Positions 8,801-37,700 are shown, counted from the first letter of the stretch. The stretch: 64,000 nt of DNA from Tubiluchus corallicola (GCA_030141605.1 JAQGDQ010000165.1:62001-126000); one strand, 5' to 3'. Notes: generated from the sequence alone by a model not told the origin. Numbers and translations are program-made.

Positions 8801-9341
8801 TTAAATTGTTCAGCACCAGTTACCAGTCGTCACACGTTTTTTTCCAATACGTTATTGCCTGTTGAGGATGCTGACGTCAAAATTTTTACATTTAACATAT
8901 TTCTCTGAACATAGACTTGTTTACAGTTCCGATAAAAACGTATCCATAATCTACGACTTTATAATTATAATTTATAGCTGTGTGTTAAACTTAAGGTATT
9001 TACTGAGGACAATGCGAGTGTATCCCGTCAGACAAGTGGAAATGGAGAGACGGAGGGATTGCCAGAAAGGCAGAGGTAACTCAATGCAAATATATGATCC
9101 GCCTGAAATACGGTACAGGAACTATTGTTATACATCACCCACAGCCCTAACTGTCCCATCAAAACAAACTTTGCAAAAATAAGCCTTTTATCTTTATAAG
9201 CTATTACTTAGTTTAGAATACACTTAGCATTTTTTCATTTTACTAGAACATGCAGACCTATATTCGTACAAAAAATACCTCACTATCAGCTAAATCTTCC
9301 CAGTTATCAAAATCTTCATCGTCACTTATGTGAGAAGCCAT
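2834..9341 (-). CDS. SZRD1: SUZ RNA-binding domain-containing protein 1, 4 coding exons, 157 aa
   Basis: Exons on minus: 9341-9279 (MASHISDDEDFDNWEDLADSE), 6441-6356 (AFDKKLEKL...), 5554-5330 (TEDTFRTQYQPQLKILKRP...VKSLQQREAEYAEARLRIMG, SUZ domain), 2933-2834 (IREPHSPDGSKGFSFPRS*, SUZ-C motif). All introns GT-AG, phases 0/2/2 match, total 474 nt. Confidence 0.93.
3340..3520. mobile_element. Kolobok-like family C terminal fragment
   Basis: Ends ttaagattgggtccagttttgctttaa, nearly identical to the termini at 38388 and 47980. Confidence 0.7.
4419..4945. mobile_element. Non-autonomous Kolobok-like DNA transposon, family A
   Basis: ttaaAGGAAAACCGGAC ... GTCCGGTTTTCCTttaa (TIR plus TTAA TSD); homologous throughout to 17344-17898 and 63460-64000. 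Confidence 0.85.
5654..5800. mobile_element. Partial TA-flanked MITE, family B (pogo/Tc1-like TIR)
   Basis: taCAGAAAGTCCTCGCTTAAC matches the termini at 15682 and 17330/17953. Confidence 0.55.
7355..7765. mobile_element. GGAGTC-repeat-bearing non-autonomous element fragment
   Basis: Repeated gtcggagtc units, a 31-bp tandem duplication at 7358-7430 and the terminus actccacagccctgg. Confidence 0.45.
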
Positions 9342-9408
9342 TTTAGAAACGTGTGCTGCCACATCGCGATAGTTTCTGTAAACGTTATGCAGAGGACAAA
9401 ATCGGAAA
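9342..9408. promoter_or_regulatory. 67-bp interval between divergent SZRD1 and TTC36 start codons; probable bidirectional promoter or overlapping 5' UTRs
   Basis: SZRD1 ATG at 9341-9339 (minus) and TTC36 ATG at 9409-9411 (plus); the interval is CpG-richer than flanking DNA. Confidence 0.6.
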
Positions 9409-11301
9409 ATGTCGCGTCCTTCACTTTGTGCAAATGATCGCGCTGTCCTGAATAGTATATTCAACCCATTATTGCCAACCGGAGACGTGTTAGATGAAAA
9501 AGATATACCGGAAGAGTTAAAAGGTAAGAATTGGTAAAGAGTTAATTATAACTATTTGAGAAACAATTATTAGAAAATGAAGCCATTTCAGCTAATAAAC
9601 TAATAAGTAATATTAGTAATACTAATAGTAATACATAGACCTTGAACCAGTTAACAACAAACGAATTTATTTTTCAGAAGCAGAAGTTGAAACCGATGAA
9701 GTGTTAAAGGCCAGAGAGTTAGAGTTGGACGCTGTTAACAAAGCAGAAGCAGGAAAGTTTGAGGAAGCTTTAACATTATTCAATGAAGCCATTGAAGTAG
9801 CACCACAAAGGGCTTCCGGATATAATAACCGTGGCCAATTGTTACGGCTTAAAGGAGATATACATGGTAATACATTCAAAATCTATGAGATCATCAAAGT
9901 TTATAAAAATCATTAAATGAATATTATAGTAGCTGCACAGGGGTATACCTGCTATAGTTTAAAATTATCTTCCAATGTCATTAATTTTTTTCATGATGAT
10001 AATAACTAATACACCTAACTAATAAAACAGAACCCTAATAATAGTATAAGTTTTTTAATTCCAAAAATAAAGCTCTATTGTCAGTTAAGTTTTCTCTTGT
10101 ATGATTGGCTTAATTATTTTTTTTAAAATTTTGATGTGATAATTAATAAGAGGATCTAGGTGTAACTGAAATTCGTGATTACTAGTGATTAGCTTTTAAT
10201 TAAAAATATTGATGTGGAATATATTGATGGGACCCATAATGGGGGATGAAAATGCTGAGAAAATAGTGATATGTCTTTTTCATTATAATTTTTAAACCTT
10301 GGCCTGTCACATTTACAGGCCTGTCCACATGTCATAATTTTTATGGTGCTACGTTAGTTTTAATTATTAGTGTATTGTTATACATTTTGCCATTGTACAA
10401 GCTGGGACTCAGCACTAGGAGGGCTTTCTTAATGATTGATATAAGACCACAGTGTAGTCATTTATGGTTGACAAGGTTAATTCTTTGAGATGAGGCACTG
10501 AACTAGACGAGGTCTATAGTTGTCAGATATGTGTATGAATTACCTTTCAGCAGGAGAAGGAGCTATCAGTACGTATAAATGAAATTGCCCAGTAGCAGTA
10601 TATTCACTGCTCTCCCTATCCATTTGCTATGCAGCTCTAGTGCTTCCTTACTTGTGAAATCAAGCAAACACCGTTTGTGGAGCTGCCTTTCCTCCATAGT
10701 AATTAGGACTGAGCATCGAAAGTTCAAATTCGATTTGAACCTAGAATTATATTCAAAGCTTTAACTACATGCATTCTTTATCATGAAAACATTTGAGACA
10801 CTATTTTTAAATATATTATTAGTGTTTTTACTGCACAACAAAATCAGGTAATATGCATGATCTTTGTGAGACCACTTTTTGTTACTGATTAGAAATGCCG
10901 AAAAATTCAGTTTGATTCGAATTCGAAAGTCACAACTTTGATTCGATTCAAATTTTCTTTCTTGTAGACAGTGCTTTCCTCGGTAGTAATCCTTTTATAT
11001 TTTGTCATCATTTAATTCTTAATTGACAGGTGCAGTTAAGGATCTGGACAAAGCCATTGAACTGAGTGGTGGTAAAGGCAAGTCAGCATGTCAGGCGTAC
11101 ACACAGCGAGGACTTATTCATCGATTTGAAGGAAATGTTGATGCCGCCCGTCATGACTTCACACAAGCAGCAGAGCTTGGATCAGAGTTTGCAAAAAGCC
11201 AGTTAATACAGCTTAACCCGTATGCTGCTCTGTGCAACAAGATGCTTGCTCAAGCTTTTGGCAAATTACAAAGAGGAGAAAGAGACGAAGGAGAAAATTA
11301 G
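9409..11301 (+). CDS. TTC36: Tetratricopeptide repeat protein 36, 3 coding exons, 191 aa
   Basis: Exons 9409-9523 (MSRPSLCANDRAVLNSIFNP), 9678-9866 (ELELDAVNKAEAG...RASGYNNRGQLLRLKGD), 11030-11301 (DLDKAIELSGGKG...QRGLIHR...LNPYAALCNKML). GT-AG introns, both phase 1, total 576 nt. NDxAVLxxIFNP and LNPYAALCN are TTC36 hallmarks. Confidence 0.95.
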
Positions 11302-14734: not shown

Positions 14735-16605
14735 ATGCTGAAGTTATACAAGACTTTGTTAACAGTATCATCACGTGCAAGTCATGGTGCTTGTACGCAG
14801 AGCATAGTGCTACCTGCTGGGAAGTTGTACAGCCATAGAACTTGCTTGTATTGTTTGGGATTTCACCGAACTTTCTCTTCTGCTCTTGGTGATGATAAAA
14901 GTTCTGCAGATTTCAAGACTAAGGTGTATGATTTTTCACTACTTATATTATTAATATTTACAGTACAGTAATGTCCTCACGTAGCAATGCTAATGCTCCA
15001 GCAAAATGTGTCATTAAGCAAAACTTCGTTAAATGAAACCAAATTTTCCATAATGCAAAAGCATTGAGATATGCTCCAGAGTCAAAAGTCAATAATGCTT
15101 AGTTCATATGAATGTATTTTTTGAATATTCTTTAATTTTTAAATGAAAGAGCCAGATTCTAGGAACTGCCATGTTTATTGAGCGGCGATCGCTTTGGCTA
15201 CTCTAGCCATTATCAAACTATAAATCAAGCCAAAAAAGAATAAATAACACATTAATGATATGAAGGCACAAACTGAAACTACAATACAATAGATTAGAAT
15301 TAACCTAATAAAATAAACGAGGTTGTAACGGAAAAAATTGCAGAGAAATGTAAAAATTATTATTTACCTAACACGTGAGAACCAGAAAAGAACACAAAAC
15401 TGTAAACAAAAAAATCAACATAATGAAGAACCACAGCAGTAAGGATAGGATTATACTGTGGGCTATGTCATTTTGTTATGCTACTAGCAGCTCTTTTGAA
15501 CAGGAAAACATGGCAAGTAGTATGAAAAAAGTCAGTGTGTAAGTGGTATAAAATTTCAAGACGAATTTTTCAAGCTTTATGTAAGTGGAGGGTTTTTTCT
15601 TGTGATTTAAGTGAACTGTCAAATATTTAGCATCGTTAAAACGATCACTAAAGCGAGGGCATCGTTAAGCGAGGACTTACTGTTTTAATAAGTGTCTACT
15701 TTTTAAATACTCCAATTCTGATATTATACGTACTTGAAGCTTTTGTTGCTTGTTCAGGATGAAACAAATTTTGGCAGTTCTTCTGCACCATCTTATGATA
15801 AAAATTTGCTGACAAAAATATGATCTTATTAAAAGAATTTTGCTCAAGTCGTAACTTCTTGCCGTGATGCTTGACATATTGTGCAATACAGTAGGCGCTG
15901 CTTAATGCACTCACTTTGGGATGGAAGTCTTTTTGACCCAATTAAGCAACTGATTCAGTTAGCCGACTGGTGTAGCCTATTACTACTACAGAAGTATGAG
16001 TCATGATTCACTACATTAGTATGCATTGCAAAGACTTTAAATGATTTTAGAAACAAATTAATTTCAAAATTACTTAGTGTAATTATTTAAGAATACTGAT
16101 TTATATGTGATTAAATAAAAAAAGAAAATAAAAAAACGCACAAATCTGTTTATTACCACTAAAAATTACTAAAATTCGTGCAAGTCGGTTGCTTCATTTT
16201 TTCACGAATGAAAGCGTTATTCATTAATTGGTTTATGAAATTCTCATAATGATAAAAACATTGACAATCTGTTACTGTACATATTGATGCAAAACATCTA
16301 GTCACCTAGTGCTTGAGCTGCAGTTTGTGAGCTTGTTTCACATTACTAAGTGCCACTATTTGTTTCTTTTTTTATTTATATTTATGTTTTTGTACTTGAT
16401 TCTAGCACTAGACCTTCTGCTTTGTTATAGAATCAAACCAAAGATGCTACTGAAAATGAAGCAACTTCTCGAACGTTCGCTAAAACGGCAAACGATGTAC
16501 CACCTATTGAAACAATAGTCAAAGGTAGCTTCATGCATCGGTGCTTATGTGGTTTTTAAATTATAGAAATAGGGGGAGGGAGGAGAGAGAGAGAAAGGGA
16601 GAGAA

Positions 16606-16703
<98 letters not shown>

Positions 16704-19700
16704 CGGGGAGGGGGGAAGAAGTCTTTGCTCTTGTAGGCCGCATGTTTATTTGCTGAATTGTTGTTGCAACCACTTGACAACAGCTAGCAATAATTTAACT
16801 ACTTAATCATCACCCAGTTTAAGTCGAGTACATTCGAAACAACCTGCTGGTGGTGCCAGCACTTAAGCTCACAAAGAGAGTTTCACTTATTAATGTTAGT
16901 GAAGTGATAGTGAAAAAAACACTTGATCATAACGCTTTGTAAACTGAGGATTTAGTTTTATATTTACGTAGATTTCTGTGTGCACCATAACTAGGATTCC
17001 ACCCGGATTTGGTCCCTATAGTTTCTGGGTTTTTTCCATCACATTGTAGTCTAAATAGGGTGTGAGAATTTCTTTGTTAAAATTGTTGCATCTTGTCTAG
17101 TTGTTCCAAAGAGCTCTCATCAGCATGAACATCCTCATCAACGCATCGAGCGTCATCGTAAAAAAATTGACTACAGTAAAAAGTCATTAGCCAATAACTA
17201 CGTTACTCCATTGAGAGCCATGTATGAGTACCTGTTGAAACCAAGGTGAATGGATTCGTGACCGTGATCATTGTATTGCAGCAGACACAACCAACGATCA
17301 GAGAAAAGCTAAATTCTTGCATATGTGTACAGTAAGTCCTCTCTTAAAGGAAAACCAGACGATTGGTTAGACTCATTTTAATGTACTGTCCAAAATATAC
17401 ATTTTCTTGCTTATAAAAGCTAACACTTGTTTCTAATATCTGAATAATTACCTTAAACAGTTAACTAACAGTAACCGAACACGGCTACCACTTAACTTGT
17501 GTCACAAACTAACCACGTTTTGTGCAATGGTAGGCATTTTCCCTGCACGTCAACCACATTTGCGTAATCGAAGATTGCTATAGAACGTTGATGTGATGTC
17601 ACAAAAATGAATTATACATCACACTGACGTTATTGACGAATACTGCAGCTCATGATCATGCTTATCACAGTACCGCGCCTATTTGTTGGCCACGTGAATG
17701 TGACAAAAAGGTGCCATTGCCAGTCTTAATGGATTCACTGAGCTGTGCATAGCTTTGAAAGTTTGATAAAATTTAACTATCCAATATAATTATTATTTAA
17801 TCTAAGCTTTGATTTAAAAAAGCTGTTGCAGTTTTCAATATTTTAGAGCATACTTTATTTTGAAATAACATCTACACATTTGTCCGGTTTTCCTTTAACG
17901 TGTCGTTAAGTAAAACGTCGTTGAACGAGACGTCATTAAGCGAGGACTCACTGTATTTTAGGAGCTGCAGCTTCATTTTACAATGCGAATAGTATTGATA
18001 GAGTCATTGCCTTTATTCCTGTTCAAAGATTTAATAGAAAACAAACATGAGTTTTTTCTAAATGAAATTTCTCAGAGCTTTTGGATGGATGTGTCTGCTA
18101 TCTCATCCCAATTGTATAACAACACCACATGAATCAAGTGAAGCAGTATTTTGCTTGTGAGAACATTTTTGTTCTGTGCTGTGAGATTGCTTCATGTGGT
18201 CGAAGTGAGCATATTTCCTTTATGCTTTCTTCCATGAAGGTTTTTTTAGGCTTCGATCACTTTTGGTTTTGTTATGTGAGTTCGTACACGATGCTCGATG
18301 CGCTCGTTAAAGTGTGTTTGCTACCAAAGCCATAATTTAATATAATTCTTCTAATGCCGCGTTTGGACTAGTGAGTCTTCTGTCGCAAATTTTCTCTCTG
18401 GCAGCAAATTTGCAAGTGTGAACTGCTTGCGAGCGAGTCATTGTAAACTATCCGACAGTTGCGGCGAGTTGGTTTCCTGCTAGTTACTGTTTAGTGTGAA
18501 TGCCTCGACGAGTTACTTGGCGAGTTTCTTGCGGTAAATAAAGAATTGAGTGTCAGCTCACCCTAACTGTTGGAGAGTAACTCGCAGTAAGTTTTGCTGT
18601 CTAGTTTGAACTCGCTTGCGAGTTACTTAGCGAGCTAACTTGGCAAGAAAACTTGCTGCTCTGAATGTGCCGCAAGGTATATGTGTGCCCAAAGAAGTAT
18701 TTAGAAATTGCTTTAAGCCAAAAGTGTTCCAAGCTTGAAAAAACAGCGAAGGGATCATAAAAATGTATTTGTCCACTAAAATAAGCCATTGTTTTATTTT
18801 CATAGTAATACCCCGAATAAGCCGGATTGATTACAGGAAAACCTACACAGCAAACAATACCTTAACAGCGTATCGAGCAATGAACGAATATTTGCTGAAA
18901 GCCAGGTGAATGTACTTTTTGAGTCGCACAGTAAAAACGTAGAAAAATTTTATAAAGCTTTTAATTTCACAAGCATTACATACTTGGTATTTGTAATTAC
19001 ATTCATATCTCGATTTGCCAGACTACTAAGCGAATACAGTAGGCGCCATACATGTATTCGACTCACAGTAATGGTAGGATCAATCTCCTTATTGCCTCAA
19101 AAACGTCTAGTATGGGTTGCTCCTATGTAACAGTATATAAAAACAGTCGACACTTCACTCAAATAACTCATTTTCTGCGCATCCTTAAATAAGATACTCA
19201 CATATAAGCTACACACTACTACGCACTGCTTGGTTACACTGATGTAATGAAGTGACGGCCCACCAACTAGAAGTCAGCTCGCAAAACAGCGGTCTGTGTC
19301 CGCAGTATGCGGGACTTTTTAACGGTACAGATTTGGTTCGATTTTTCCGATATCCGTAAAAGAGGGGTCTGGCAAACCGAGATATGGGTGTGCTGTGTTA
19401 TAGTCGTTGCATATTCATATATGTTTTATGATACCATAAATTTAACTTTTTCTTGCTTATATATTAGTTTAATTTAACTTATTAATTTATTAGTTGTGGC
19501 ATAATTTGAGTAACATGTTATTTGTCATAATGCCAGTAAATGTTGACTGAAAGTTCTACCTCATACGTCTTGTTAACCTTTTCCTTGTGTTTCCAAAAGC
19601 GATCTTGAAGGACTGAGGAAAACACTTCGTCGAAGCCCTTATGATGATAAGCCCATGACTGTCCACCTCCGATCCGATGTCGAAGCCAAGTAAGTATTGT

Positions 19701-22700
19701 AAGAGTGAGTTAATAGACCAGAACCCAGCACTGACAGGAAAGACGGATCACAGTGGAATGATGACAAGCAGAAGCTGAACTTAATGTTTTGTTTGTAATT
19801 GTATTTATTAGCTAAGATATCATAATCTGGTACGCTGTTTTACACGAAAGAATTGATGAGATTTTGGGAGGTTGATTAAAATTTTTATTTAATGATTACT
19901 TAATTATTCTTAATTGCAAGATTATTGTTATTATTGAACGAACTTAGAGTTACAGAATTATTAAACCAAATCTTACTGAAAGAAAGTAATTTTCTAAAAT
20001 GTTTTTAAGCTTGCATCCTAAAATTTCTATTTCAAATTCAGTTCAGTTCTAGCTTTTTTATAATGTCTTTCTTTATGCGAAGTTTTCTCAAAAATCTCAT
20101 GATTACAGGTTCGTTCGATCGTGTGTATGTCTATTATTGATTAACTATAGCTTCTATTCATTCCTACTTACTCTGTAGTCGATGTCTTTACAAGTTGTAG
20201 ATAAATTTTGATGAAATTTGGCAGAAGGATGGGGGCTAAGGGTAATAGAAAAACTGGTTAGACTCTAATGATGATTGATTAAGAAACAGGTGAGAAAATC
20301 ATTTTTATTAGACAAGTTCAAGTTTCGTTGCAGGTGAAATTCCAGGATGTTGCAGTAATCAGTAGTATAAAAAAGGGCAATGGTGTGCCGTGCATCATAA
20401 ATGGAATGGTGTCTGAAAATATTTTTGCAAAACATTTGCGATGGGTTCAACCAAAGACAAGCAATCCAAATAAACCATGTATACTTAAATTAGTGACTAT
20501 GTGATTTATCGAATTACGTTAAACAAAGGAAGTTCTATCAGTCAGGAACTACCATCCTTAAAAATAGAAATAAAAAATACTGCTGGTCTGCAAAAACAAC
20601 AACGTTGTTTTTTGATGGGTATTTCATGGCTGAGTGGATAGGCGTTCACACTTTAAGTAAGCATTGTATAGGTGACGTGGTTTGATGCTTGCTTTGGATG
20701 GTATCATCCGTAAACCTTGGCTGTTTGCCTCTTAGGTGGAGGGTGTGTATGCAAAGAGGAGGTTGATTTGCTCTTCTTAGAGAAACTTCCTTAATGATGA
20801 GCAAGATTCCTGTCACGTCATATACATCTCGTTGAGTACTGGCTTTGACGGGATGGCTCTGACTTCAAATGCAGGATTTCGGCTTGCAGTGTGTCTAAAT
20901 GTATAAAAAGTGGCCCCAGTGACCAAAAGTTACGATAACTTCCTTTGTTTAACATAATTCAATAAATCAGTTAATCACTAATTTAAGAATATATGGTTTA
21001 TTTGGAGTGCTTGTCTTTGGTTGAATCTATTGCAGATGTTTTGCAAAAATAATTTTTCCATTTATGATGTACATTCTTGACAATTTTTTATACTGATTAC
21101 GACGACATCTGGAAGTTTACCTGCAACGAAGTCTGAACTTGTCTGATAACATCGATTTTCTCACTTATTTCTTAATCAATCATCATTGGAATGTAGCAAG
21201 TTCTTCCTTTACCCTTAGCCCCCATCCTTCCACCAAATTTCACCAAAATGTATCCACAACTTGTAAAGACATCAACTACAGAGTAAGTAGGAATGAATAG
21301 AAACTATAGTTAATCAATAACAGACACATACATGATCGAATGAACCTGTAATCAGGAGATTTTTGAGAAAACTTGACCTAAGGAAAGACATTACAAAAAA
21401 GTTGGAACTGAATTGAATTTGAAGCAGAGATTTCAGGATGCAGGATGCAGACATTTTAGAAAATTTGTTGGTGACGAATGTGCTTGGTCATTAACATTTA
21501 TTTCGTTAAGAAAATGTTTCTACTTTTTTGATATTTGACGATATTTGACGAATGACATGGACATTTTGTTGATCATAAACACTGAGCTGCCATACAAAGC
21601 AACTTTGGTTTGTTATTTAACGGTGGTTATGCCAGTTCTTACTGTAGAAACCAGTGATGCTAAATAATGGTAAAGTATGTATGATTTAATGTTATTTAGT
21701 GTTATTATTAATGTTATTAAGTCACGGAGTTGCTGCTTAAAATGTTTGCTTGTGATATGTAGGGCAATAGAAGTCTGGGGTAGTTTGGAGAACCTTCAAA
21801 AGGAACTGAAGAGTAGAAGAGATCCTCGCCATACGTCTGGTCAAGGTAAACAGTTGCTGAGTGGCTAAATTAAAGTCTATGAACTTCCTGTCATCTTTGT
21901 ATTTTGCATTTCACGTATTTTATGTGAAGTGTGTACCACAAATGGGCGACTTTATCGAGTTGCTGTGAATGCTGCAGAATGTTTAATCGTTTTAGGCTGA
22001 AAAATAGTTTGTTTCCCGTATTTTCTTGTAAAAAGTTTGAAGGTAGGAATGATTTTCTTTTACTGTATAAATTATCCTAAAAAATATAACCCAAGAAGTT
22101 GTTAATTTTTAATTTCCACTGATACGAGTACATATATTTTATAGCAAGGTAACACCAACAGTTGAGAAACGCACTGCTGTTGCTGTAATTTACTACAAAC
22201 AGTTGAGAAATGCACCACTATTGCTGTAACACACCACAAACAGTTGAAAAATGCGCCACTGTTGCTGTAACACACCACAAGCAGTTTAGAAATGCATCGC
22301 TGTTGCTCTAACTTATCACAAACAGTTGAAAAATGCACCAACATGGCTGTATTTAAACCACAAACATTTGAGGAATGCACTGCTGTTGCTGTGTGTAACT
22401 CACCACAAACAGTTAAGAATTTTGCTATTATGTGAAAAGTGAAAAATGTGGAATAAGGCATAACTGGCCAGTAATACTTTTCTATTAAGTAATAGTGTGT
22501 GTCAGCCCAGCAGGGTATTATGCAGGTAATGTTTGTGAGTAATAATTACTTTAACTTCTAGTGACCTTTGTGTTTCTTAGGGAAAAAATCTATTTAATCG
22601 ATTTTTCAACTTTCGTTGCAGAATACAGCATAATCAAAAGAGCCATAAGAGAGTATAGAAATCTACTGCGATCTTCCGGCCAAAATGAAACTCCATTCAT

Positions 22701-25700
22701 TTTTCAACCGTATGGACGCAAACCTGATGTAAGATTTTTTTACTGTCAATTCTTGATTTACGACATTATATATTTATGACAAAGTATATAAAAACTATTG
22801 GCAGTTGACTCAAATAACCCCGCATAATTCCACATACAAATGCTAATTAAACCACTTAAACGCGCTGCTGATTAAACCTGTTAAACACACTGATTAAACC
22901 ACTTAAACACACTGAAATACAAGTTAGACACGTGTCAATACACCCTGCTTGGTTACACTGACTAGCAGCTCAGCTCGCAAAACAACAGAGTGTGTCCGTA
23001 TTATGCGGGACTTTTTAACGGTCCAGATTTTGTGCGATTCTTCCGATATCCATAGAAGCGACGTCTGGCAAACCGAGATATTAATGTACTTTGTTAAAGA
23101 GAGAAAATAATCAACGATTAAGAAATATCTGGTGAATTCTGAGATTTCTTGGGTTTGTACATTTGACCATGTCTGGTTTCCATCTGTTGATTGTGCTGTA
23201 CTCAAACATAGCTGCATTGTTTAAAAATGTTGTTCGTGCGTATTGATACACATGGATTCAGTGGATTAGCAAGTGCTTGTGATGCCTGGGGGTAAACGTT
23301 TGGTACCTTAGCTACCCTTTTAATCTACCCTTTGAAGCATTTAAAAAGAGTCGCAGTGACCAACTTATAAATAGTCATTAGCTATATTGTATTGCATTTT
23401 CTTTTCAATTCTAATCAAGCTTTTACCATCATGATTTTATCTAATATTAATTATGGTATTTCTTTAGCTAATTACGTTGTAGAATCAGCGTGTGGCTGTA
23501 CTTGCCAAATGCGTTCATATTGAGTATATTTACATACATTGCAGAATCAACATAGCTGTGCTTTCCAAATGTGTTCATATTGAGTACATTTACATACATT
23601 ACAGAATCAACATAGCTGTGCTTGCCAAATGTGTTCATATTGAGTACATTTACATACATTGCAGAATCAACATAGCTGTGCTTGCCAAATGTGTTCATAT
23701 TGAGTACATTTACACACGTTGCAGAATCAGCATAGCTACATACATTGCAGAATCAACGTAATGGTGCTTACTAAATGTGTTCGTATTGAGCACATTTACA
23801 TACATTGCAGAATATACATAGCTGTGCTTACTAAATGTGTCCCTATTGAGTACATTTACATGCATTGCAGAATCAACATAGCTGTGCTTACCAAATGTTT
23901 TCATATTGAGTACTTTTAGATATGTTGTAGAAACAACATAGTTGTGCTCACTAAATGTGTATTACAGGAAAAGCAGACAATGATGAAGACAGGCACAGGG
24001 AGAGTTGTTCTTCTTGCAGTTGCTATGTAAGAATTTTTTGCAAACATTTTTTTCTCTTGTGAAATTTTCTTAGACAGTCAATGTATTTACTTGGCGTGTA
24101 ATATCCAGGTCTACTTTAGTCTGTGTATAAAATCTAACTCAAAAATGACTTACATAAAAGAATTATTACCACACAAACACAAGTTCACGTTTGCTCCACT
24201 AGTTCTTCGTGGTACATGCATTTTGCCATTCGTTAGTTAGACGGACACTAGCGCCTGCATTTTGGAAACGCATTGCACAAAAAAACAGGTGCTGTACCTC
24301 TCAGTTCAGATGTGTTAGTTTATGATGTACTGCACACGTTGGACAGCTTATGCACAGGTACTTTTTACCATACTTGAAAATGGGGTATTATATAAAAAGT
24401 CATCCTGTCTCCCTTTAAGCTTTAACAATTTCAAAGTAAACAACAATTTTTACTTAGTCCAGGTAGATGCTGTGCATTTGCATGTAAATTATTTATGTAC
24501 TTATAAATTTTAAATATCAAATTTTGCTCTTTGTTTGTTGTTTCAGCTTGAAATTAATTGTTTCAGAAACTCTGCAAATTTCTTGTTTAAAGCAGCAGCA
24601 TGGCTGTACACAGGTTCACATAGCATGTTTTCTGAAATGATACATTCTCTTGCCGACACCTGCAACCAGGTAAGATAATTGATTAGTTGAGGGCGTGAAA
24701 GATGGAACTGCTTGTAGTTGAAATGAGGCATTAGGAGTGTTTGTTTTGCAATGCCAAGGCCGAAAATGAGCTTGCCTGAGCCAGATTATTTTAGCAAAAA
24801 TGTAAAATGTCATGCCATGTGCAAATTTTTCACTTTTTGTACTGCAAAAATGGAAACTCTTCATGAAATTGTTAGAAGATTTGTTTTCAATATTCCTAAT
24901 GAGTTAATTATTATAAGGTATTTTAGTTTAGTACTGTTTATAAACTGTTTACTCCTTCACGATGGTGAACATTTGTGTAGTTTTGACAACCCCCTACAAA
25001 AATGCCCATAATGGCTTAATTGCATGAACTACTAGTACAAAACTATATACATTTTCTGAAAGAGAATTAAATTTTCTTTCTAGCTTATTTAGTTAAGCAA
25101 TTAACAGGATGATACGAAAAGTCTGTAAAACTTTCACAAAATTTTTGTTTCAAAGCCTTTTAGTTTCCAAATGATAGCCTGTATTTAAAACTGTTCAGCA
25201 CAAAAATTGTAGAGCGGTCTTTTCTGTACAATAATTTGCAGAAAGTATTCAAATCACTCTAAGCTTATCAATTTGACCGAGCTCAGTTCAAATGCCTAAA
25301 GGTGTTATGAAACTTGTACAGGAGTGTAACAGCTCCCTGCAGGTGGGTGTGCCCTTCGCTGGATGCAGCTACTTATAATGACGGTCCAGTGCACTGTTGA
25401 AGTAACAGCCAATTCAATTCAATTCAGTTTTATTTGCACAAATACACACAATGTATATTGGCAATGTACAATATAGTGTACATGTCAAATACTACATAAA
25501 CCGAAAAAAATAATTCATAATAGGCTTTATGCAAAGTTGTTTTTATATGCAAATTTTAGTATACTGATACAAAAATCACAGTTTAATATTGTATAATTCA
25601 GCAATGGAAAAAGAAATATGAACCCAGCATTCCCAGTAAGTAGCTGTGTACATAATTATAGTGCACAATTATTTACTTGCTGGTTTATTCAGGCACTGAA

Positions 25701-28700
25701 TTTTACACTGATTGAAAGAAAAAGTCTGATAGCATAGTGATTGCTAATAAGTGAAAAGTACAGAAATTGCTGTACTACACACATCTAACAGGTTACTATC
25801 CCATTCTGCCCAATAACTGTAACTGCTAGTCTGATCAAACTGTGAAATCATTCCAAATTAAAAGAACACATAGAATGCTAGCGATTTGTTCACATAGTAA
25901 CATACCCCAAATATATTGCATACTAATTATGATGAAATAGACTTATATTTCCCAGGCCAAATACCAGAGCTTGCATTTCAATCTCTGATAATGTTTTAGA
26001 AGTGGACATTAGTTTGTTACGTAGGTGAAACACAAGTCTGCGTACAACACTGTTCAACGCAGGCTGCTGTTATATTCTGTGAATACACTTCCAGGTGCAA
26101 CAAAAATTACCTTGGTGTGCTAATAATAGCCTGAGCTAATGAGCGGCAGGGCAGATCAATGTTGCTGCTACCGTGAGTTGCTGTACAGGTGCAACTCAAA
26201 ATTTTTATCCATTAGTTTGCAAAAAACTTGTTCAAATACTGAAAATGAAGAAAGCAACAGAATTTTTTTGTTATTATATGATTTAGTTTTACGTTACCTG
26301 TTTCTTTTTTCCAAATTTCATTGAAATTGGAGGTTTGAAAGTTTAGTTAATAAGGCCTTATTTTTACCCATCACAGATGGCGGGTAAACGTATATGTACC
26401 CATCGGCAAGGAGTTAGGGAATGGATGATTATTAAAACTGCAGCATTTGTTACTGTCTTCGAATGACTGTCTTCACGATCTATTCTAACATCAGGTAATG
26501 ATATACCTGCATCCACGACTACTGTAATGATACATATGGCAGCTGTGACGCATGTTCACAACTTGAACGTGGATGTTACACGTTTTTCATTTGCAAAGCT
26601 GTCGATTTTGCATGACATTGATTCAGCTTATTGAAAAATGATGGTCTATTGAAACTACAAAGAAGCTTTGGTAACACAAGCAGCCGCTTCGCTACCAAAT
26701 GAATTGATTGCAAAACGATTGTTCAAAAACTGCAAGACAAAATTAAGTTTAATAAATTTAAATCTGCCTCCTAGAAGTACTAAACACATGATTTGAAAGG
26801 AATCAATGGATAACATATGTACCGCTATATCTGTGCCATTTTTTCACATACAAATGGATGGTTTGAATCTATAAAGTGATCGCCATATGTTGTAGATGAC
26901 ATGACAAAGAGGTAATTTTCCCCAGACCTTGCTTGTGGTTCATCATCATGCCACGGCAGAGGTGCAAACGCATTTACAGCTATACCAGTAGCTGCCCAGA
27001 TCCATTCTTGATTTCCTTCAGGATCTGTCCCACTTGTGAGGAAGTCCACAGGCAGGTGGGAATGAATGTACGCCAGTTCCGAAGGTGACTCGAAACTGAC
27101 AAGGTCTCCACCCTTGTCGATGCACACCTGACGTGTGTTATCCCAAGTGCCTGCTCCCGTTGAACTGAGATAGTAACAAGATCCACGAAATTCCAGGAAA
27201 TCTGTTCCGCACTTTCCAGAATTACCTGCAACATAATGCAGGCATATAATCATCAAGACTTTTCTCAATTTCCTACTTTAACCATCTACAATAACCAGAT
27301 AATCTGAAGGACATGTTACACCTTCTATTCTACTGACGAGCTTGTTGTCTGCTTCATAGATGTTTCACACTGTTCTGACTGTTTTGCACTGGTTAAATAT
27401 TGCACTCTGTTAATTTTAATTTGTTAAATTTATTAACGAACTTCTCTAATTTTGTATTGTTGCTGCAGAGTTCTGTAATTCCAATAATTATCCGACCAAA
27501 ATTGATTGTCTTTGTCCATTTTGAATCGTTCTCTGTTAGAAGTGTACCACTTGTTCCCCTTTTCCATACGATTTCACTGAAATCCTGAATTTTTTAATGA
27601 CCCTAAGTTCAGAGGCATATGTAGGTGTTTGCCTTCTTAAAGTGCGTACTTATTAAAGTTCGTGATTTTCCTTTATACGACAATCCATCTTCACAAAATC
27701 TAGATGGAGACACAAGTTGCTTTTTCACCTATTTTCACTAAAATATCTTGATTGTGTTGTATTGTCTGGTGCAGATACAGACATGGATAAAACTTAATTA
27801 CTTTGGCAGAGATGATGAGCCCACTTAACCTGGCATTCATTTTGTAAAGAAAAAAAAGCATTAAAACATGCAAAGATTATGAAAAATATAGAACATTACA
27901 TAATTTCACAATCATACAATCGGCACTTAGAGAAATGCCACTGCTTCTCCCAATCGATCTGCTAAGCCACACGACACCCTACACACGCCATTAAGTAACA
28001 ACATTAGCCTTTTTTCTTGTCTGTGTGTTGTAATTAAGTCAGCTATGATGATCCCCGACTAGGCAATTTTTTGTTTCAGGTTGAAAACTTTTGTTAATTG
28101 TTTCGTTAATGTCGCATTGATAATTAATAATTAAGAAGAATTTTGTGCTCTCTCACCCTTGCGCTCTAGGGCGATTGTCCCCTGCACCTCCACCTTGCTG
28201 CCCCCTTGTTGTTGATTTAAGTTTTCATTCTAATTTGCATTAAAATGACATGATACATCATACCAGAGTGTTGTAATGCTTGGTTTTGTTGAATATTATG
28301 TGTTCGTATCTCTGTGATACCAAATGTAAGATTGTGTTCAACTGGTATTGTTAGTGTTACATGTGCAAATCAAAGGCTTTTTCTTGAAGAACTAGTTTCA
28401 AGAGTTAATTAAAATTGCAGTGAAAATGTCCTTACCTCTTTCATAAAACTCAAAAGTAGGCATTGCAGTTTGGACAGAATCATTTGCAGCGTAAGCACTC
28501 AGGTCGCATTGGAACTGACCACCGCTGGGACCTGTATTGAAACCAATACATCCTGGCCGAGCATCACAGTGATGTGCACAAGCAAGCTGACTGACGAGGT
28601 ACCTCGTTTCTATAATACCTTCTGTCACCGCTTTGCCTGTCAGCTTTCTGCGGTAATAAGAACAGCTTGTTACACTTAACCAAGCAAAGCAATTGATCAT

Positions 28701-31700
28701 AGAAAGAACAACAACGTTTTCGTTTTTTGTCCAGCGCATTATATGAAAGAGATCAAGTTCCCAGAAGTACGAAAGACTCGAAGAGTTTTCTACTGGCCGA
28801 GTTGCACAATGGGAGCAGTTTTGCCGCGTGACAAAGCACTCACAGATGCTGACTATCAATACGACATGCTTAAGAACACTTATCTACACCTCTGCTCATG
28901 AAAGGCAACCATGGAGATGATGACGCTCTTTGTAAATTTTGTATAAGGCAACAAAAGACTCCATTATCCAACACTAAGGCTTTGTACAGACGTCACTAGA
29001 TAAGCAGACAATAAGACAACAAACGTCTGCAATACTTCATGCTTTATTGATCGATTGATTGACTGATGTCTGCACAGACAGAACTGATTATTAGCTGCTT
29101 CTTTCCATGTTAGTTGCTTTCCCTCATTAATGATAGACTAGTAAGAGTTCCTGTTTTCCATTCAATGCTAGACGTTGCTTCCTTTTCATGTACCTTCCTG
29201 ACTGTCTTTGTGTCTTTTTGTCCTTTTTGACACAAGATGGTATTTTATTACATTTTTGACACAATGTGTGTATTATTTACGTTACTTTGTTGTGTTTCGA
29301 ATGTTATCAACAGTTTTTCCAAATTATCACAAATCATTGGTTTGGTTTTCAAATTTTTTTTATAATGCCCACCTCTCTGAAACACGTAAGTCGAAGAATC
29401 TTTAATGGATTTATTTGTCAACATTAAATGGCTGTACAAGCAAAACAAAATTGAGTAAGAGGAGAAAGGAATGGGGCTCAAGATGCTTGATTAATAGACG
29501 TGATTAATCACATGTTAGTCACTTAGACAGTTCAAAAAATTCATGTGTGGGTTTTTGCTGTGCTTAGTAAATGGCAACTCAAAGGTCACTGCTTTCTTCG
29601 GTAACTTTTAAGTTTAATTTCCTGTGAGTAAGTTTGTGAGCCTGTGAGTTAGGTACACCTAAATTTGTGAGTCTATGAGTAAGGTACGTCTAAGTCTGTG
29701 AGTCTGTGAGTTAGATACACCTAAGTTTGGGAGTAAGGTACATCTAAGTTTGCGAGTCTGTTAGTAAGTTATGCCTAAATTTGCAAGTCTGTGGGTTAGG
29801 TACACCTATGTTTGTGAGTCTGTGAGTTTTGTATGCCTAAGTTTGTGAGTCTGCAAGTAAGGTACACCTTAATCTGTGAGTTAGGTACACCTAAGTTTGT
29901 GAGTCCGTGAGTTAGGTACACCTAAGTTTGTGGGTCCGTGAGTTAGGTACACCTAAGTTTGTGGGTCCTTGAGTTAAGTACACCTATGTTTGAGAGACTG
30001 TGAGTTGCTACACCGAAGTTTGTGTGTGTACGAGTAAGGTACACATAAGTTTGTGAGTTTGTGAGTTAGTTACACTAGTTAGTACACCTAATTTTATGAG
30101 TTTATGAGTAAGGCACACCTAAGTTTGTGAGTTAGATATACCTAAGTTTGCAAGTCTGTGAGCTAGGACCACCTAAGTTTGTGAGTTTCTGCTTGCTTCA
30201 AATAAGAGAGATTCATCGGCAGTTACAATTTGAGGTGTTTAAGCTTCAACGATACTAACATTGACGAAGTGTCTCCCTATACTAATACATTATTATGTAA
30301 ACTAACAACATAAATTGTTTTCAGCTTAGATAGCCTGATGTAAATTTGCTATTTCCACTATATAACCTTCTCACATTACCATTGCAGCTACTGTGAATCC
30401 TGTATGAGGACGATATTGTTAAATTGCAAACTATTTCTTGATTCATGTTTTATTTCGCTTGTTGTTTTTTGCAGTTAATCTTAGCATGGGGTGTCCATAC
30501 ATCAATAAAGAGACCAGACCCAGGCCACCCGTAAGTAAATTTCGTTGAAAGTACAAGTTTGCCAAACTCTTTTGAATATGCTCATAAAAATTCAGGTAGA
30601 GATTATTTATATATCATCTTCACGTCGTCAGTCTGTAGAGTATCTTATGAGAAGCACTGTATGTGGTTACAATTTAAGCAAACGTGCTGATGTTAAAATG
30701 CATATGCTTAATGGTTAGTTATTTGTTTAGATAACTTATAAATAACAAATATATTATTAATAATAAATTAATAATTTATACGTATTAATTAATAATAGAT
30801 AAATAATTTACTGAAGAAAGGGTTAAAGTTTACAATTCCCTCACACAAGAAAATTATTTTGTGAAGTGGATTAGGATAAGGGTTAGGGTTAGTATTAGTG
30901 TTAGGGATAAGTTAGGGTTAGAGTTGGGTTAGGATTAGGATTGTGATACGGTTAGGGCTAGTGTTAGGAGTAGGGTTAGGATGAGAGTAGGGGTTTGAAT
31001 TAGAGTTAAGTGTGTGGTTAGGTTTAGGGTTGTGTTAGCGGTATGGCTAGGGTTAGGGTTAGGATTAGGGTATTTAAATTGTGTGGGGAATTGTAAACTC
31101 TTTCCGATGAAAGTTCTGTTTTAATTTGTTGGGTTGTACATTATCAAATATACAAATGTTAGTGTTATAGAGCAAATCACTCATGTTATTAAAAATGAAT
31201 TACTTTACCCGAGTTAGTGAATAAGCCTATTAAATATTATTAAAGAAATTATTGCAGCTGTCTCGGAATTGCTTAGATTTTAAATTTTCACAGTTCCAGC
31301 GATTGATGATGATAGTGAAAAAGTCAAAGGTTAAGTTTAGCAGACAGCGCATTTGTGTACACATGATAACGCCTCACATCGCCTGCTGCAGTAGTAACAG
31401 TTTTAAAAGCTACCTTACCTAGTTCATTTTTTCTTTTTCCCAAGCAAGATCCTGCTAGTAAAGTACTCCAAGCATAGACTAATATATAATTAAGTAAAGT
31501 CCACATAAAACAACTGACATTACTGAACTAATGTGGCAGACGGCTTTGCTATACCCACATGTTACCTGACGGTTGTAGTTAAGATGCATTGCTGTGGTAT
31601 ACTTAACCTTTGACCTACAGCAACTGTGCGTGCACACAACGAAACTGTGAAAAAGCTTATTAGTACTGTGTTATTATTTTAATTGTGAAATGAACTTTCT

Positions 31701-34700
31701 ATTTTTTTAGCTACGGTTATTCTAATATGCGCTATGTCTCTTCATTAATAAGCGGAGTTGGTATCTTCTGTTTTGGAACCGGACTGTCAGTATACCATGG
31801 AATCAAAGGCTTGATTAGTCCCACTGAGATAGAGTCAATGTACTGGGCTTTCTTCATACTTGGAGGTGCCGCAGTTTCCGAAGGAGGTGCGTGTTATGAA
31901 AACTGTGGTTGTTTTTCACCCATTGTTTATTTTATAGTAGTGATGATGTTGTTATAAAAAGTTATTTAGGTTTCAACTCAGTCTGCATAAGGGAGTAAAC
32001 ATTTTTGCAATCTTTATATGCATTTTTGTTACACTGGTAAAAAAGAGAAAAGATAAACGAAATTAAGATAAGAAGTTTAAACTTTTGGCAGACATTTTTT
32101 TTGTTGACAGGTTTTCGCTTGACAAAGATGATTTGTTTTTAAGGTTTAGTAAGTTTTAGACATTGTGTAAATGTTTGGATCACATACATACTATCATATC
32201 TGTAACAGTAAAATAGTTTCAAGGTAAATTAGTAAGTGAGTGAAGGGTGTCTTGCAGAATACTTTACTCAGCATTTGCAGTTTGTTTTGCTGACCATAAT
32301 GTCTTAAGTTCAATTCAATGGTGGTAATAGCTAAAATTAGTGGGGCTGCTGCTTCAGAAAATTTTTAGCCATTGTTTTAATACTATACAAAACGAAACAG
32401 ACACATGTAATTTTAATGTTGTAATTGTAACTGTAGTTTTAAACAAACAAACACACAAAAATTTATACATAAACAAGATAAAATCCTAAACAAAAAAAAT
32501 ATTGTTTGCTTACGAATAGCCTAAATTGACGCAATTCAAGAATATGCCGGTATAAGGTTTTTAAGCATGTGAGCAACACTGTGTGAGCGACAGTACTTTC
32601 TCTAGTTAGAGTGCAGTTTCTTATCTCAGATATGTGCCCACGGCTGCATGCGTACAACAGCCAACCACCGCATTGTTGAAACTATGAAGTGCGCAGTTCC
32701 GTCACGTGCTCTGGTTCTGTACAAAGATTTACAAGTATAGCGAAAGAATTAAAGAAGAAAGACTCATATTGAATATTATCGATAATATCGATGTGAAAAG
32801 TGTGCTCAGTTACGGTTAAGACAAACTTGCACAGACAGATTAAAAATATTTGCAGTTCCATCACTTGCCGTGGTTTCGTGCAAGTATAAAGAAAGATTTA
32901 AAGAAAAAAAGACCAATTATATTAAATATCATCGATAATATCGAGTGAAAATAGGGGGTGCTGGAGTTCCACAGTACCTGTACATGAGCCGCTACTGGTT
33001 CAATGTGCAGTAAAGGTGCCTTCAAATAGGTATTTTGATTAACCTTGTAGCTTTATAAGGAAAGATACCTGCAGTGGAGGAGAAAGATATTAGTAGGAAG
33101 TTTGACCTATAGTACTGTTCTTGGACTAGAAAATTGATCCTGTCAAAAAGTAAGTATTAAATTGAATTAGTAAAAGTCACTATTGTAAACTGTTGTAAAG
33201 TATCCAGATATCTCAACAAGATTATATTTATATGGTAATTTAAAATACATATTGTAAACTACAAAAGTTTGTCTACATAGTCTGGCGAGTATATATAGAT
33301 TAAAAGAGAATGTTTAACTCTAATTGGCAAGAATAACAAGTCTTTAATTAATTAGCTACATACTCACTGGTATAGGGAGGTAGTATTTGCTGTACATGCC
33401 AAGAGATGGTCTCTACCAGGTTTTGATTTACAAAGCTTACATATACAGGTTTGCATTTGATTAAAAAACTAGGTGGAGCAAAACTATTAGCCAATTTACA
33501 GGCGCGGCTATCATGGTCTGCAGCCCCATCTTGTCAGCCAAACTTGACAAACTTATTTTTAATGCTAAAATATTCGATTGTTCATTTATATAAATTCATT
33601 TTGTAAAATACATTCGTAGTTCATTAGAAGAAGCAGAATCAGAACCTTAATTATCACCATGTTATCACCTATAGTTGCAGTTACTGACAACATGATTATT
33701 TATTTGTTGTTTAGGAACGTTACTAGTGGCATTTGAGGAGATTAAACGCAAGGCTAATTTAACTGGTGTCTCTTTTATGACTTATGGTATGTTTAGTTAT
33801 TTACTCATCTTCTGTTTGCATCAGGTTTTCAACTTTTTCAATTTTGCTTAATTTATACTTTTATCAAATTGACAGTTTCATAGCTTTTGTATAGGCCTGA
33901 TGTGACAAAGTGACACAATTTCAAAAGTTACTGCAAAATTTAAGGTGAAAATTATATTCCTGGGTTAGTTTAGCTAGTTAAGAGTACATCTATGGAAAAG
34001 AATTTTCTTAAGTTAATTTGAAAATCACTTATCAGAAAACAATATCATGAAACAACTGAAAGTGATACCATTATGGAATTTTTGCCAGGGTTACAGAGCT
34101 AATATTGCACTTTTTTATAAACTTTTATTGATAGTTTGGGCAATTGAGAATTTCAGAAATCTTTACCAAAACTTTAATTTGATAATTTTCTTCAAACCAA
34201 CATAGAAAATTGCAGTTTTGTAGAACCAATCTGGTATCTGTTTAAAGGTTTTTACGAAACAGAAATTGAGAATTTTTGTGAAACCGAATCAAATTTTTAG
34301 CAAAGAAAAAGAAAAACAAAAATTAATAGATCATTTTTAACCATCTTTTGAAATGAGAAGTGCATGGCTGTCACATCTTTTGTGACCTACACTGAATCTT
34401 CTATATTTGTCATTGATTTTTTTTTCAGTTTGGCGAGGAGAAGACCCCAATGTGAATGTCGTCCTGCTAGAAGATTTTGCCGCTGTCATTGGTGTTGGGA
34501 TTGCTGCCATGTGCATGGGAATCACTGCCTACACCGGTAACCCCACTGCAGATGCTGTAGGCTCTCTGATGATTGGAGGGTTGCTAGGTGCTGTGGCCTC
34601 ATTCATCATTTATACTAATGTAACAGCTCTGGTTGGAAGGTAAGCATTTTTTTCAGAGAAATTCATATTAATCTGCCATTCAGTTTGTTGAAATAGTTCT

Positions 34701-37700
34701 AATTAGTATTTTCTTTGATATGTCAATGATGATAATTTTTCTAGCCATTAAAATGCATTAGTGAATGATTTCTCCTGGTAGGTCAATATTTGTGAATGGA
34801 ATTTTGTGTGACTATTGCTAGAAAGCTACGTCTTTTGCCATTAACTGCTTCACAGGTTGCTTTGGCTTATTTCCTGGCAGTTTTATCCTGTGCCTTCTCT
34901 GTGTATTTGTACTGATGTGGTTAAGACGCATTGCTGTGATACACTTAACATTTGACTTACAGTAACTGCGCGTGTGCACAACGCAAGTGTGAAAAGGTTT
35001 ATTCCGTTGTGATCTGTTTTACAATAAGTGGAGTCTTCATCTTCTTACCCATGAAGAACAACGATATGAGCAGATGTGTCACATTCCCATCATTCCCAAA
35101 TTTTGTTCATCTGACATCAAGTGTTTTTTTTTTTGTTTAGGTCGATACCACCTGGAAGGCAGGACAGCATCTGCAAAGAGCTGGAAAATGATGTTGTGAT
35201 AAGGTATCTATTTCAAATTTATATCGTGTGTTTCAAAAGTTGTGTTACACTTTGCATGGATGTAGCGGATGGTCTGTTAGTTTGCTAAATCCTGCAGGTT
35301 CTTATTTGGCAACATATTTTACATTTAAAATTTAAGCATTGTCCTTATTTACTACAACTACTAAGTGCAGTTCTTGTCTGATTTTCCCTCCTGTATACTA
35401 TTGCTTTAGTCTGACAGTTTGTAACACTCAGATGTTTTAATTTGTTTGTGTATCAATTAGCTTGGCTATTATTTGTGAAATTAATGTACTTGAACAAGAT
35501 GGGCTATCGTCAAAGTACAGCTACAATTTTCCTTATTTGGGCAAAGAAACAAAAACGTTTGCATTCATGTATTTATGACATTTGTAAAAAACTTACCCTT
35601 TTCACTGTGTATGTTTCCATTTTATTATTGTAACACTTATCTTGTTAAATACTCACAGAGCCGATGCTAGGAAGTGCGTGTCTTAATAAGAAAATTATTA
35701 GTGGGGCCCTCTACCCTCAGAAGCTGAAGATTGATATTTTATGCTTCAAGCAATATGCCATTCTCAGCCAAAAAATGTTGAGAGCTTGAGGCTCCACCAT
35801 TAGCCACAATGATGTACTAAAAATTGAAAGCCCACTTATATGAAAGTTTTAATGTTTTATTACAAGCAAAAATTTTTACTACACGCTGTTTATGCATAGG
35901 CCTTCTAAAATGGACTTTTCTGGCGTTTTATCGGAGAAATCTTTCAAGAGTATTTCAATGTCAATGGTTTTCGTGATGCCATTTTGTATAACTATCATCG
36001 CCAAATTATTTAGTCCATCCTGTGAAATTGTTGGCAGGAGGAATGCTTTAATCTGTGTTGGGGGTTTGAATATCGTCCTCAATTTAGCAAGATTAAAATT
36101 CATTGATGATTTAACTAATTCTGTGTTTTTTTTTAAAAAAGGGTAAATAGGGACGATAAACTGAATTTACAAAACAAATAAACAAACGACGAACAAAAAA
36201 CATTGAAACATAAAGATATAAGAGGACAGATTGAATGAATAGTTTCACTGCCTTCACAGTACCAAGAAACTTCATGATCCTTTGCGGGGTCCCGTCTTGA
36301 CGCGGGCCCAATTTGAACAAATCTGTCTAATAAGCCTTTTCACAGTCTCATTGTGCACTTGCACAGTTGCTGCAGGTCAATGGTTAAGTGTACCACAACA
36401 ACACGTCTTAACTACAACCGTCACATGACATTGTTGTAAAGTAAACCTGTCTGTCGCATCAGTTCAGTAACTTCAGTTGTTTTACATGCACTTTACTTAA
36501 TTATGCATTATTCTGTGCGTAGAGTGATTTACTACCAGGATCTTGCTTGGGTACGAGAAAAAATGAACTAGGTAAGGTTCTGGCTAGCTGTTAACACCGT
36601 TACTGTTACAATACCATGGGCTGCGAAGCATTGTCAAGTGTACACAAATGCGCTATCTGGTACACTTAACCTTTGACCTTATGATCATCATCAATCGTTG
36701 GAACTGTGAAAAGGCATATTGGCTTAAAACCGGCCCTGCTACCATGTTATTTGTATATGTGAATCATTCTAGAATCTGTAAGGATTGTGTTTCGCATAAC
36801 AAACATCTATTGCTTCTTATTCGTGTCTATAGGGCTATTCATGATGTGAAAGCAACTGATCTTGGAGGCTCGATGGTTAGGTTTAAAGCTGAAGTGGACT
36901 TCGATGGCAGAGCTATAACTCAGTCGTATCTTGACTTGATTGATTTAGAGACTGTTTTGAAGGTATGAATGTAGAGTCTGAGTTATTGTTTGCTGACCCG
37001 TTCATAAAGATCCAATCTTAGGTTGACGAGGTGGAAACAACAACTTCCTGTACAGTGTACACTCATATCTCGGTTTGCTGGACCTCGCTTTTACGGATAT
37101 TGGAAAAATCGGACAATATTTGGACCGTATAAAGTCCCGTATGCTACGGACACAGTTCGTTGTTTCGCAAGCGGACCACTAGTTGGTGGGCCGTCACTTT
37201 GTTTACATCATTATATCAGTGTAATCGAGCAGTGTGTAACGTCACTTGTGGAGTGTGTATGTCAGGAGCGGACCCTACTAGACGGTTTTTGAGACAATTA
37301 GGCAATTATATTATTGTCATCACAGCGCACAAGCTTGATTTGAAAAGCGAAGCTTGGATTTAATAAACGACAGATTTTACTAGGTTAAAGCGTTGTAGAG
37401 CTCTGTTCTAGCAATAGTGGCCATAGTGTAACTGATTTATTATTCGTGGGTTTATTAAGCGATTTGATTGTATTTGTTGAAATCAAAGCTACAGATGAAC
37501 CATTTATTTTCTAGATCTAGCTTATTAAACTGCTCTATGTGCATCTAAGACAAATGCATTGTACAATTGAATGATAACCTTGGGCTTAGCTTTAGTGAAA
37601 CCTCTAAACTTTGTGGAATACCTTTCTTTTTCGCATGAGCGTTTTCCAGATGCTGCCGTATCACCATGGTTGCTTTATCTAGCTTACATAAATTAATTGG

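Follow-up and report, generated by a model that had tools for sequence, protein, structure and literature searches.

A duplicated exon pair in the zinc transporter gene SLC30A9 of Tubiluchus corallicola, probably mutually exclusive, with an intronic element predicted to pair with one copy

The DNA analysed here, referred to as the window, is a stretch of 64,000 nucleotides from Tubiluchus corallicola. It contains a zinc transporter gene whose model, assembled from homology and splice dinucleotides, has 16 exons between positions 14735 and 39707. Database matches of the encoded protein are named SLC30A9 and carry PF01545, and the translations display the family motifs H-S-L-A-D (exon 8) and V-L-L-E-D (exon 12). 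The published signature of cation-efflux proteins is HXXXD in transmembrane segment II and V/IXXXD in segment V (PMC11335279). Two homologues (P0026 and P0123) have the solved human domain 2ENK among their matches (E 1.5e-24 and 1.3e-18), along with XPA chains, and exons 3–6 of the window align with the part of P0123 that matches 2ENK. The conserved N-terminal block of human ZnT9, which the initial annotation had pointed to, is real, and 2ENK aligns at the exons considered below; homology to XPA is cited in PMC9231024. Judged by its sequence, the gene is an SLC30A9/ZnT9 orthologue with both the cation-efflux domain and the XPA-like N-terminal domain. SLC30A9 is essential in fly and mouse and is mutated in a human cerebro-renal syndrome, and the functions of its conserved blocks outside the membrane are unknown; the mitochondrial presequence and location are taken from orthologues (PMC11335279).

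Several other features are found in the window. A minus-strand gene with a SUZ domain (5329–5643, with a probable first exon near 9261–9545) appears to lie head to head with plus-strand TPR exons at 9632–9913 and 11023–11298; these genes may be SZRD1 and TTC36, respectively. Intron 8 of SLC30A9 contains, on the antisense strand, a C-type lectin frame at 26828–27277 (Pfam Lectin_C, E 4e-6). A Cys-patterned minus-strand frame in the same intron (28401–28883) has no Pfam match and may be another exon of a nested gene. Two short frames, at 40972–41259 (plus strand) and 51118–51408 (minus strand), have no Pfam match either, and resemble decayed GIY-YIG endonuclease ends of Penelope-type elements.

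Between exons 2 and 4 of SLC30A9 there are two homologous exons, 3a and 3b (Table 1). Each is preceded by an AG acceptor, has an open frame and ends at the same donor, AG/GTGAATG, a type that the other 14 donors of the gene do not have. The positions, lengths, splice sites and common donor reported in the initial annotation are all as it gave them; exon 2 ends in phase 1 and exon 4 starts in phase 2, likewise as given. Both exon lengths are of the form 3n+1, and in the 16-exon model inclusion of a single copy gives a full-length protein of 578 aa with 3a or 563 aa with 3b. With both copies present a stop occurs at codon 151, 1,339 nt ahead of the last junction, and with both skipped a stop occurs at codon 100, 1,247 nt ahead of that junction. 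The arithmetic behind what had been termed frame-enforced exclusivity is therefore correct. It should be pointed out, however, that a frame shift merely clears wrong products after splicing, and the intron element described below suggests active control.

Table 1. Coordinates of SLC30A9 exons and of the sequence features associated with exons 3a and 3b
Feature	Position	Strand	Remarks
SLC30A9 coding exon 1	14735..14923	+	Inferred start; ATG and donor in frame with the remaining model
SLC30A9 exon 2, phase-1 end	16431..16524	+	Last residues agree with the P. caudatus protein
Alternative exon 3a, 145 nt	17101..17245	+	Family-typical aromatic-aliphatic-T-P motif kept; acceptor weak
In-frame surplus of 3a over 3b, 45 nt	17113..17157	+	Approximate, edges alignment-dependent; five His within first 20 residues
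13-nt site in 3a insertion complementary to element core	17142..17154	+	Significance marginal
Unique intronic element complementary to 3b	18264..18322	+	Core 18280-18322; 5' extension to 18257 reaches the 3b donor in some folds
Arm complementary to 18240-18269 (28 bp)	18715..18744	+	Possible third competitor; resembles many inverted repeats of the window
Alternative exon 3b, 100 nt	18806..18905	+	Orthologue of exon in P. caudatus model, by sequence comparison
3b portion predicted to pair with element	18849..18904	+	37-bp core 18849-18889
SLC30A9 exon 4, phase-2 start	19600..19689	+	
SLC30A9 exons 5-16 (12 exons)	21763..39707	+	Cation-efflux and C-terminal domains

A family profile made from 107 homologous segments gives 77.9 bits to 3a and 60.1 bits to 3b. 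None of the remaining positions, of 127,834 frame positions in the window, scores above -5.6, which indicates that the window has no third copy. When the protein of Priapulus caudatus is compared with the window, no other SLC30A9 exon has a second match. Reading frames in the DNA of other animals stop at the same residue as 3a and 3b, and the exon boundary is thus old. The splice sites of the two exons were scored, the acceptors with a crude 14-site matrix. The donors are similar (8.1 for 3a and 7.5 for 3b), and the acceptors score -3.3 for 3a, which is below all 14 other acceptors of the gene, and 5.9 for 3b, which is ordinary.

Two simple causes of exclusivity were considered and set aside. 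Incompatibility between U2- and U12-type sites, assessed with the U12 splice-site consensus, is ruled out by the identical GT donors and AG acceptors at both exons. Steric hindrance applies where less than about 50 nt separate the upstream donor from the downstream branch point (PMC5740500); the intron between 3a and 3b is 1,560 nt long.

Comparison of the two copies over their 27 shared codons reveals 16 identical residues, and differences that fall 10/6/17 on the first, second and third codon positions. The proportion of synonymous differences is saturated (pS ~1.0) and that of nonsynonymous differences is low (pN 0.24; Fisher p 4e-9), and 11 of the 15 identical degenerate residues are encoded by different codons. 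The suggestion, made initially from such codon differences, that both copies are under purifying selection is borne out. Simulations with substitutions only (3,000 runs per setting) point the same way. At 0.4–1.0 changes per site a free copy keeps its frame, AG and GT in 0.4–8% of runs, and in no run is the observed profile score retained; at 0.2 changes per site the frame is kept in 17–25%. The profile score of 3a is close to the family median (leave-one-out median 77.2), and the family consensus is nearer to 3a than to 3b. That 3a and 3b are a homologous duplicated pair held by purifying selection is well supported by these comparisons.

A sequencing run, X1, adds limited information. Its reads are DNA-like, without splice joints, and at 96% likeness they leave the 3' half of 3a and the element core uncovered. 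X1 contigs over the two exons have no differences in 342 nt, compared with 22 in 2,051 mostly intronic nt (P ~0.03), a weak contrast that is not independent; for exon bases alone (179 nt) P is ~0.15. Over the 3a acceptor and the first 79 nt of the exon, the contig is free of differences for 151 nt; it is possible that X1 comes from the source sample. In exon 4, one X1 contig has three differences, at 19621, 19624 and 19627, all at third codon positions and synonymous. Two runs are listed for 17040–19720, neither of them as RNA; the other one, X2, which is RNA by guess, covers 6 of 30 bins, all of them repeats, and no exon. Neither run bears on the expression of 3a or 3b.

A search with a profile of 3a and 3b yielded one named protein among 19 candidates, the zinc transporter 9-like protein XP_014663106.1 of P. 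caudatus; a protein search with 3a alone (4 candidates) found no protein. From exon 4 onward the window protein is sister to that of P. caudatus in a quick tree of 26 rows (SH-aLRT 99), with 70% identity over 356 columns; P. caudatus is the nearest relative detected, and the placement points to a priapulid or close kin. This supersedes an earlier quick tree of 41 rows, which had no priapulid and placed the gene beside lophotrochozoans. In the exon itself, 3b matches 22 of 27 P. caudatus residues and 3a matches 16 of 27. Residues common to 3b and P. caudatus include a Tyr present in 0 of 106 other unique segments and a Thr present in 2 of 106. In an analysis of 23 rows and 27 columns, 3b and Priapulus group at 96/92, a clade of 3a with 3b is rejected (p-AU 0.015), and a clade of 3a, 3b and Priapulus is neither rejected nor supported (p-AU 0.236). 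On these alignments 3b is orthologous to the P. caudatus exon. Since the clade of 3a with 3b is rejected, the duplication is likely older than the split of the two species, and 3a has likely been retained ever since; with 30% protein divergence since the split, for which the literature searched gave no date, a dead 3a would be erased. The single P. caudatus model found (a cluster of 1) has a 3b-type exon only.

The first residues of 3a, V-V-P, are the same as those of the Priapulus exon. The acceptor of 3a is therefore the ancestral one, and its 45 extra nt are an internal, in-frame insertion. The overall reading in the initial annotation holds as far as a duplicated homologous pair under purifying selection is concerned, to which we add a duplication that likely predates the P. 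caudatus split; the use of each exon in mRNA and a difference in zinc handling are points that we infer.

Other animals provide some further observations. No swap of exon 3 was seen by eye among the members of isoform clusters that were compared (look-ups of 30 proteins, with few multi-member clusters), and a metagenome scan for the exon gave 281 pattern matches, none confirmed. A rotifer-like query of metagenomes detected one locus of 1,005 nt with one exon copy, a locus too short to show a second. In the 184-aa protein P0131, from another animal, the 3' part of this exon occurs as three partial copies in tandem, likely a local tandem repeat across the donor. In P0140 (Diadema), P0133 (Saccoglossus) and P0161 the conserved aromatic that 3b lost is also replaced, and in Diadema it is replaced by the same Thr-Leu, which represents either convergence or deeper common history.

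Neither 3a nor 3b has a Pfam match when taken singly. The place of the exon in the protein can be seen in a structure of the Priapulus protein predicted by AlphaFold from a 42-row alignment (mean pLDDT 70.7, pTM 0.52; residues 1–124 unresolved). The exon corresponds to residues 135–169, which include a strand (155–157) and a helix (158–164) with pLDDT ~90. The strongest differences between 3a and 3b fall on that strand and on the start of the helix. Exchange of the exons would thus alter the XPA-like N-terminal domain in its first strand and its first helix, if the model is correct. The insertion of 3a appears to form a His-rich linker just ahead of the ordered domain. By comparison, the same 21 residues in homologues have 0 or 1 His in 130 of 130 segments, duplicates included. 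Zinc-binding His-rich loops occur in other CDF transporters, and one may speculate that the linker of 3a binds zinc. The gene likely yields two versions of the transporter, one with an extra His-rich piece. Two natural versions of the domain's first strand and helix, kept for a long time, point to residues worth testing and imply that properties of the domain are tunable.

The intron between the two exons contains a sequence element that was detected in a repeat search as an inverted match of 18292–18322 to exon 3b. With G-U pairs allowed, the pairing of the element with 3b has a z of 5.9 and was equalled in 0 of 300 shuffles; within 1.5 kb, none of the other 16 exons has a comparable partner (highest z 1.1). 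The core forms 37 bp with its target in 3b at -47.1 kcal/mol, the best of 6,379 plus-strand windows, the next being at -33.9. Among 1,000 synonymous recodings of 3b none reached the pairing energy of the element. The duplex is present in all three folds that contain 3b. Masking of the 3b donor is seen solely in the fold starting at 18200; once the fold includes more sequence upstream, the segment is drawn into a local hairpin. Sequencing depth in X1 is low at the element, which indicates that it is not a repeat.

High-copy MITE-like repeats with inverted ends are found around 3b, at 17344–17898, ~18350–18700 and 18999–19391, with X1 depths of hundreds to ten thousands. The repeat at ~18350–18700, which is situated between the element and 3b, folds on itself, and the element and 3b may thus be close in the folded RNA.

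The element core also has a predicted 13-bp pairing with the insertion of 3a, which ranks 7 among the best sites of the window. When the whole core is used, 40 of 1,000 recodings are as good, and for a shorter piece picked afterwards the number is 3 of 1,000. Dimer folding gives 14 of 300 as good, and 3a has the second-best dimer energy among 16 exons. A third candidate partner is the arm listed in Table 1, which pairs with 18240–18269 and occupies the element when the fold ends at 18790. This pairing is not unusual among the inverted repeats of the window, which number 39 pairs of at least 26 nt, and no clear target-site duplication was seen by eye. Folds of the growing transcript predict an order of events: the element pairs with 3a before 3b is made, with the arm at 18790, and then with 3b.

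The best explanation, to which we assign a probability of about 0.7, is that 3a and 3b are old, intact copies, each giving a full protein when used one at a time, that they are likely mutually exclusive, and that the element is predicted to bias the choice between them. It is very probable that both exons are in use today. Left to splice-site strength 3b would win, having the stronger acceptor. Pairing of the element with 3b would hide the 3' half of that exon, and the weak-acceptor exon 3a would then be chosen; whether the duplex forms in the pre-mRNA and acts in this way is to our minds an even bet. The weaker pairing with the 3a insertion would have the reverse effect and hold 3a back early in transcription, and products with double inclusion or double skipping would be cleared by nonsense-mediated decay. 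The predicted duplex makes the mechanism directly testable. A more elaborate proposal, which we consider a long shot, is that one antisense element toggles two exon bodies, and that the 3a insertion serves both as an RNA selector and as a His-rich zinc-binding loop. If this were so, folding of the RNA would let the worm alternate between two forms of its mitochondrial zinc exporter, one zinc-sensing and one plain, and there would be a natural pair of variants for a ZnT9 domain of unknown function.

A serious competitor, which we rate at somewhat under even odds, accepts the use of both exons and denies the element a part in splicing. The element would be a decayed inverted copy of 3b, or else an editing-complementary sequence for ADAR, of which a 37-bp duplex is a typical substrate, and exclusivity would come from competition between the exons, from splicing factors and from the decay of products with a shifted frame. 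The element does track the present-day letters of 3b, third positions included (12 of 14 are Watson-Crick pairs), which would be expected of an inverted copy of fairly recent origin. Of the sites that distinguish 3a from 3b, the element agrees with 3b at 15, with 3a at 6 and with neither copy at 7, a pattern that a decayed inverted copy could also yield; the richness of the window in inverted repeats and the marginal pairing with 3a fit as well. On the other hand, mismatches of the duplex in 3b show no excess at third positions (2 of 14, vs 5 of 27 first and second positions, numbers too few to decide), and the only GCG among the 45 Ala codons of the 3b-form coding sequence falls in the helix core. 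The element is also placed between the exons, as is R3 of ATE1 (see below), and it aims at the exon with the stronger acceptor. With respect to ADAR, no exonic A is found opposite C in the duplex by eye. On a different view 3b is constitutive, and 3a, although long functional, is by now dead or hardly ever used. The presence of an element damping 3b would be easiest to understand with 3a in use. The weak acceptor of 3a, the 3b type of the P. caudatus model and the low-complexity look of the insertion, which is absent from homologues, speak for a dead 3a. It is intact nevertheless, with its insertion in frame and its residues nearer to the family consensus than those of 3b, and the X1 contig over its acceptor has no difference, a weak point. 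We regard a dead 3a as unlikely.

Regulated double inclusion or skipping might instead serve as an on/off switch, with mRNA decay tuning the level of the transporter, e.g. by zinc. In both out-of-frame products the stop does precede the last junction by more than 1,200 nt. A poison exon need not keep its amino acids, however, and both copies keep them, so that such a switch seems highly improbable. A somewhat less improbable idea, though still one that we doubt strongly, concerns the age of the pair: the bilaterian ancestor would have had both exons, and the 3b type would have been kept by most deuterostomes, the 3a type by most protostomes. In a free tree of the 27 columns, 3b and Priapulus do come out beside Saccoglossus and Diadema (85/90, 81/82), and 3a lies among rows from spiralians (81/73). 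Diadema also has the rare T and the L of 3b before the conserved T, the former being the Thr of two unique segments mentioned above. Against this, the test does not reject a grouping of 3a and 3b with Priapulus, 27 columns resolve little, and the donor common to 3a and 3b is peculiar to them within the gene. In addition, the isoform pairs of Limulus and Parasteatoda have the same exon, as seen by eye. Finally, the pair could be an artefact of assembly in which two alleles or paralogues were joined, and the chance of this is negligible: the synonymous saturation is far above allelic distance, X1 has both exons with their own intron flanks, and the Priapulus protein finds a second match in the window for no other exon.

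Exon pairs of this class are common. In human mutually exclusive clusters, 377 of 629 (60%) have lengths not divisible by three (PMC5740500). The SLC30A9 pair shares with homologous tandem mutually exclusive exons its homology, adjacency, frame, phases, GT-AG sites and non-3n length (PMC5740500, PMC3228551). It differs from the usual tandem pairs in that its exons are 45 nt apart in length, the surplus being an in-frame insertion ahead of the folded domain.

The human ATE1 exons 7a and 7b are alike in having two duplicated exons and one element in between, with pairing that hides an exon (PMC7797038). The ATE1 element R3, located between 7a and 7b, hides a 3' splice site by pairing with either R1 or R4. 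R1 and R4 are similar to each other, intronic and conserved, they cover 3' splice sites, and the mechanism was proven by compensatory mutants (PMC7797038). In SLC30A9, by contrast, the targets are exon bodies, the best site in 3a is not homologous to the site in 3b, the two pairings are very unequal, and the duplex is a predicted one. The ATE1 pair is also listed without a frame shift in a supplement row of PMC5740500, whereas the SLC30A9 pair is frame-shifting. Of the features that define an ATE1-type arrangement, the inter-exon element is present (18264–18322) and the 3' splice sites are not targets. The SLC30A9 pair works like ATE1 at most, and we do not class it as an ATE1-type member.

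In the docking and selector systems of Dscam1, Mhc, 14-3-3 and srp there is likewise one site with several competing partners (PMC6071210, PMC10790352, PMC8791459), and duplication of one stem arm can create pairing competition (PMC6071210). A docking site of the Dscam1 type flanks the cluster, and intronic selector pairing activates an exon (PMC6071210, PMC10790352, PMC8791459). The SLC30A9 element, unlike these, is between the exons and would mask exon sequence. In SCN genes nonsense-mediated decay is not the main cause of exclusivity, and for exons 5a and 5b RNA structure and Rbfox2 matter more (PMC12772994). If the duplex is real, SLC30A9 would be a compact example of an intron element that masks exon bodies, in a little-studied phylum.

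The initial annotation knew of no such pair in SLC30A9, and literature searches on SLC30A9/ZnT9/ZnT49B splicing found no exon swap. SLC30A9 is absent from the supplements of PMC5740500 and PMC7954323 as far as their gene lists were visible, which was possibly not in full: the control gene, ATE1, turned up in a single file of PMC5740500 and nowhere in PMC7954323. The exon swap in SLC30A9 is new as far as these searches reach. The one splicing event of the gene that these searches found in print is the skipping of exon 3 in mouse germ cells, which is not a swap (PMC12847546).

Two minor features of the introns may be added. The sequence at 18709–18726 looks by eye like the 3' end of 3b (its final 20 nt plus the donor); the end of a third exon could survive there as a relic, or the stretch could simply mirror the arm that it pairs with. 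Also, a GA microsatellite of ~60 units (16583–16703) is present 58 nt 3' of the exon 2 donor, and purine runs are able to bind splicing factors.
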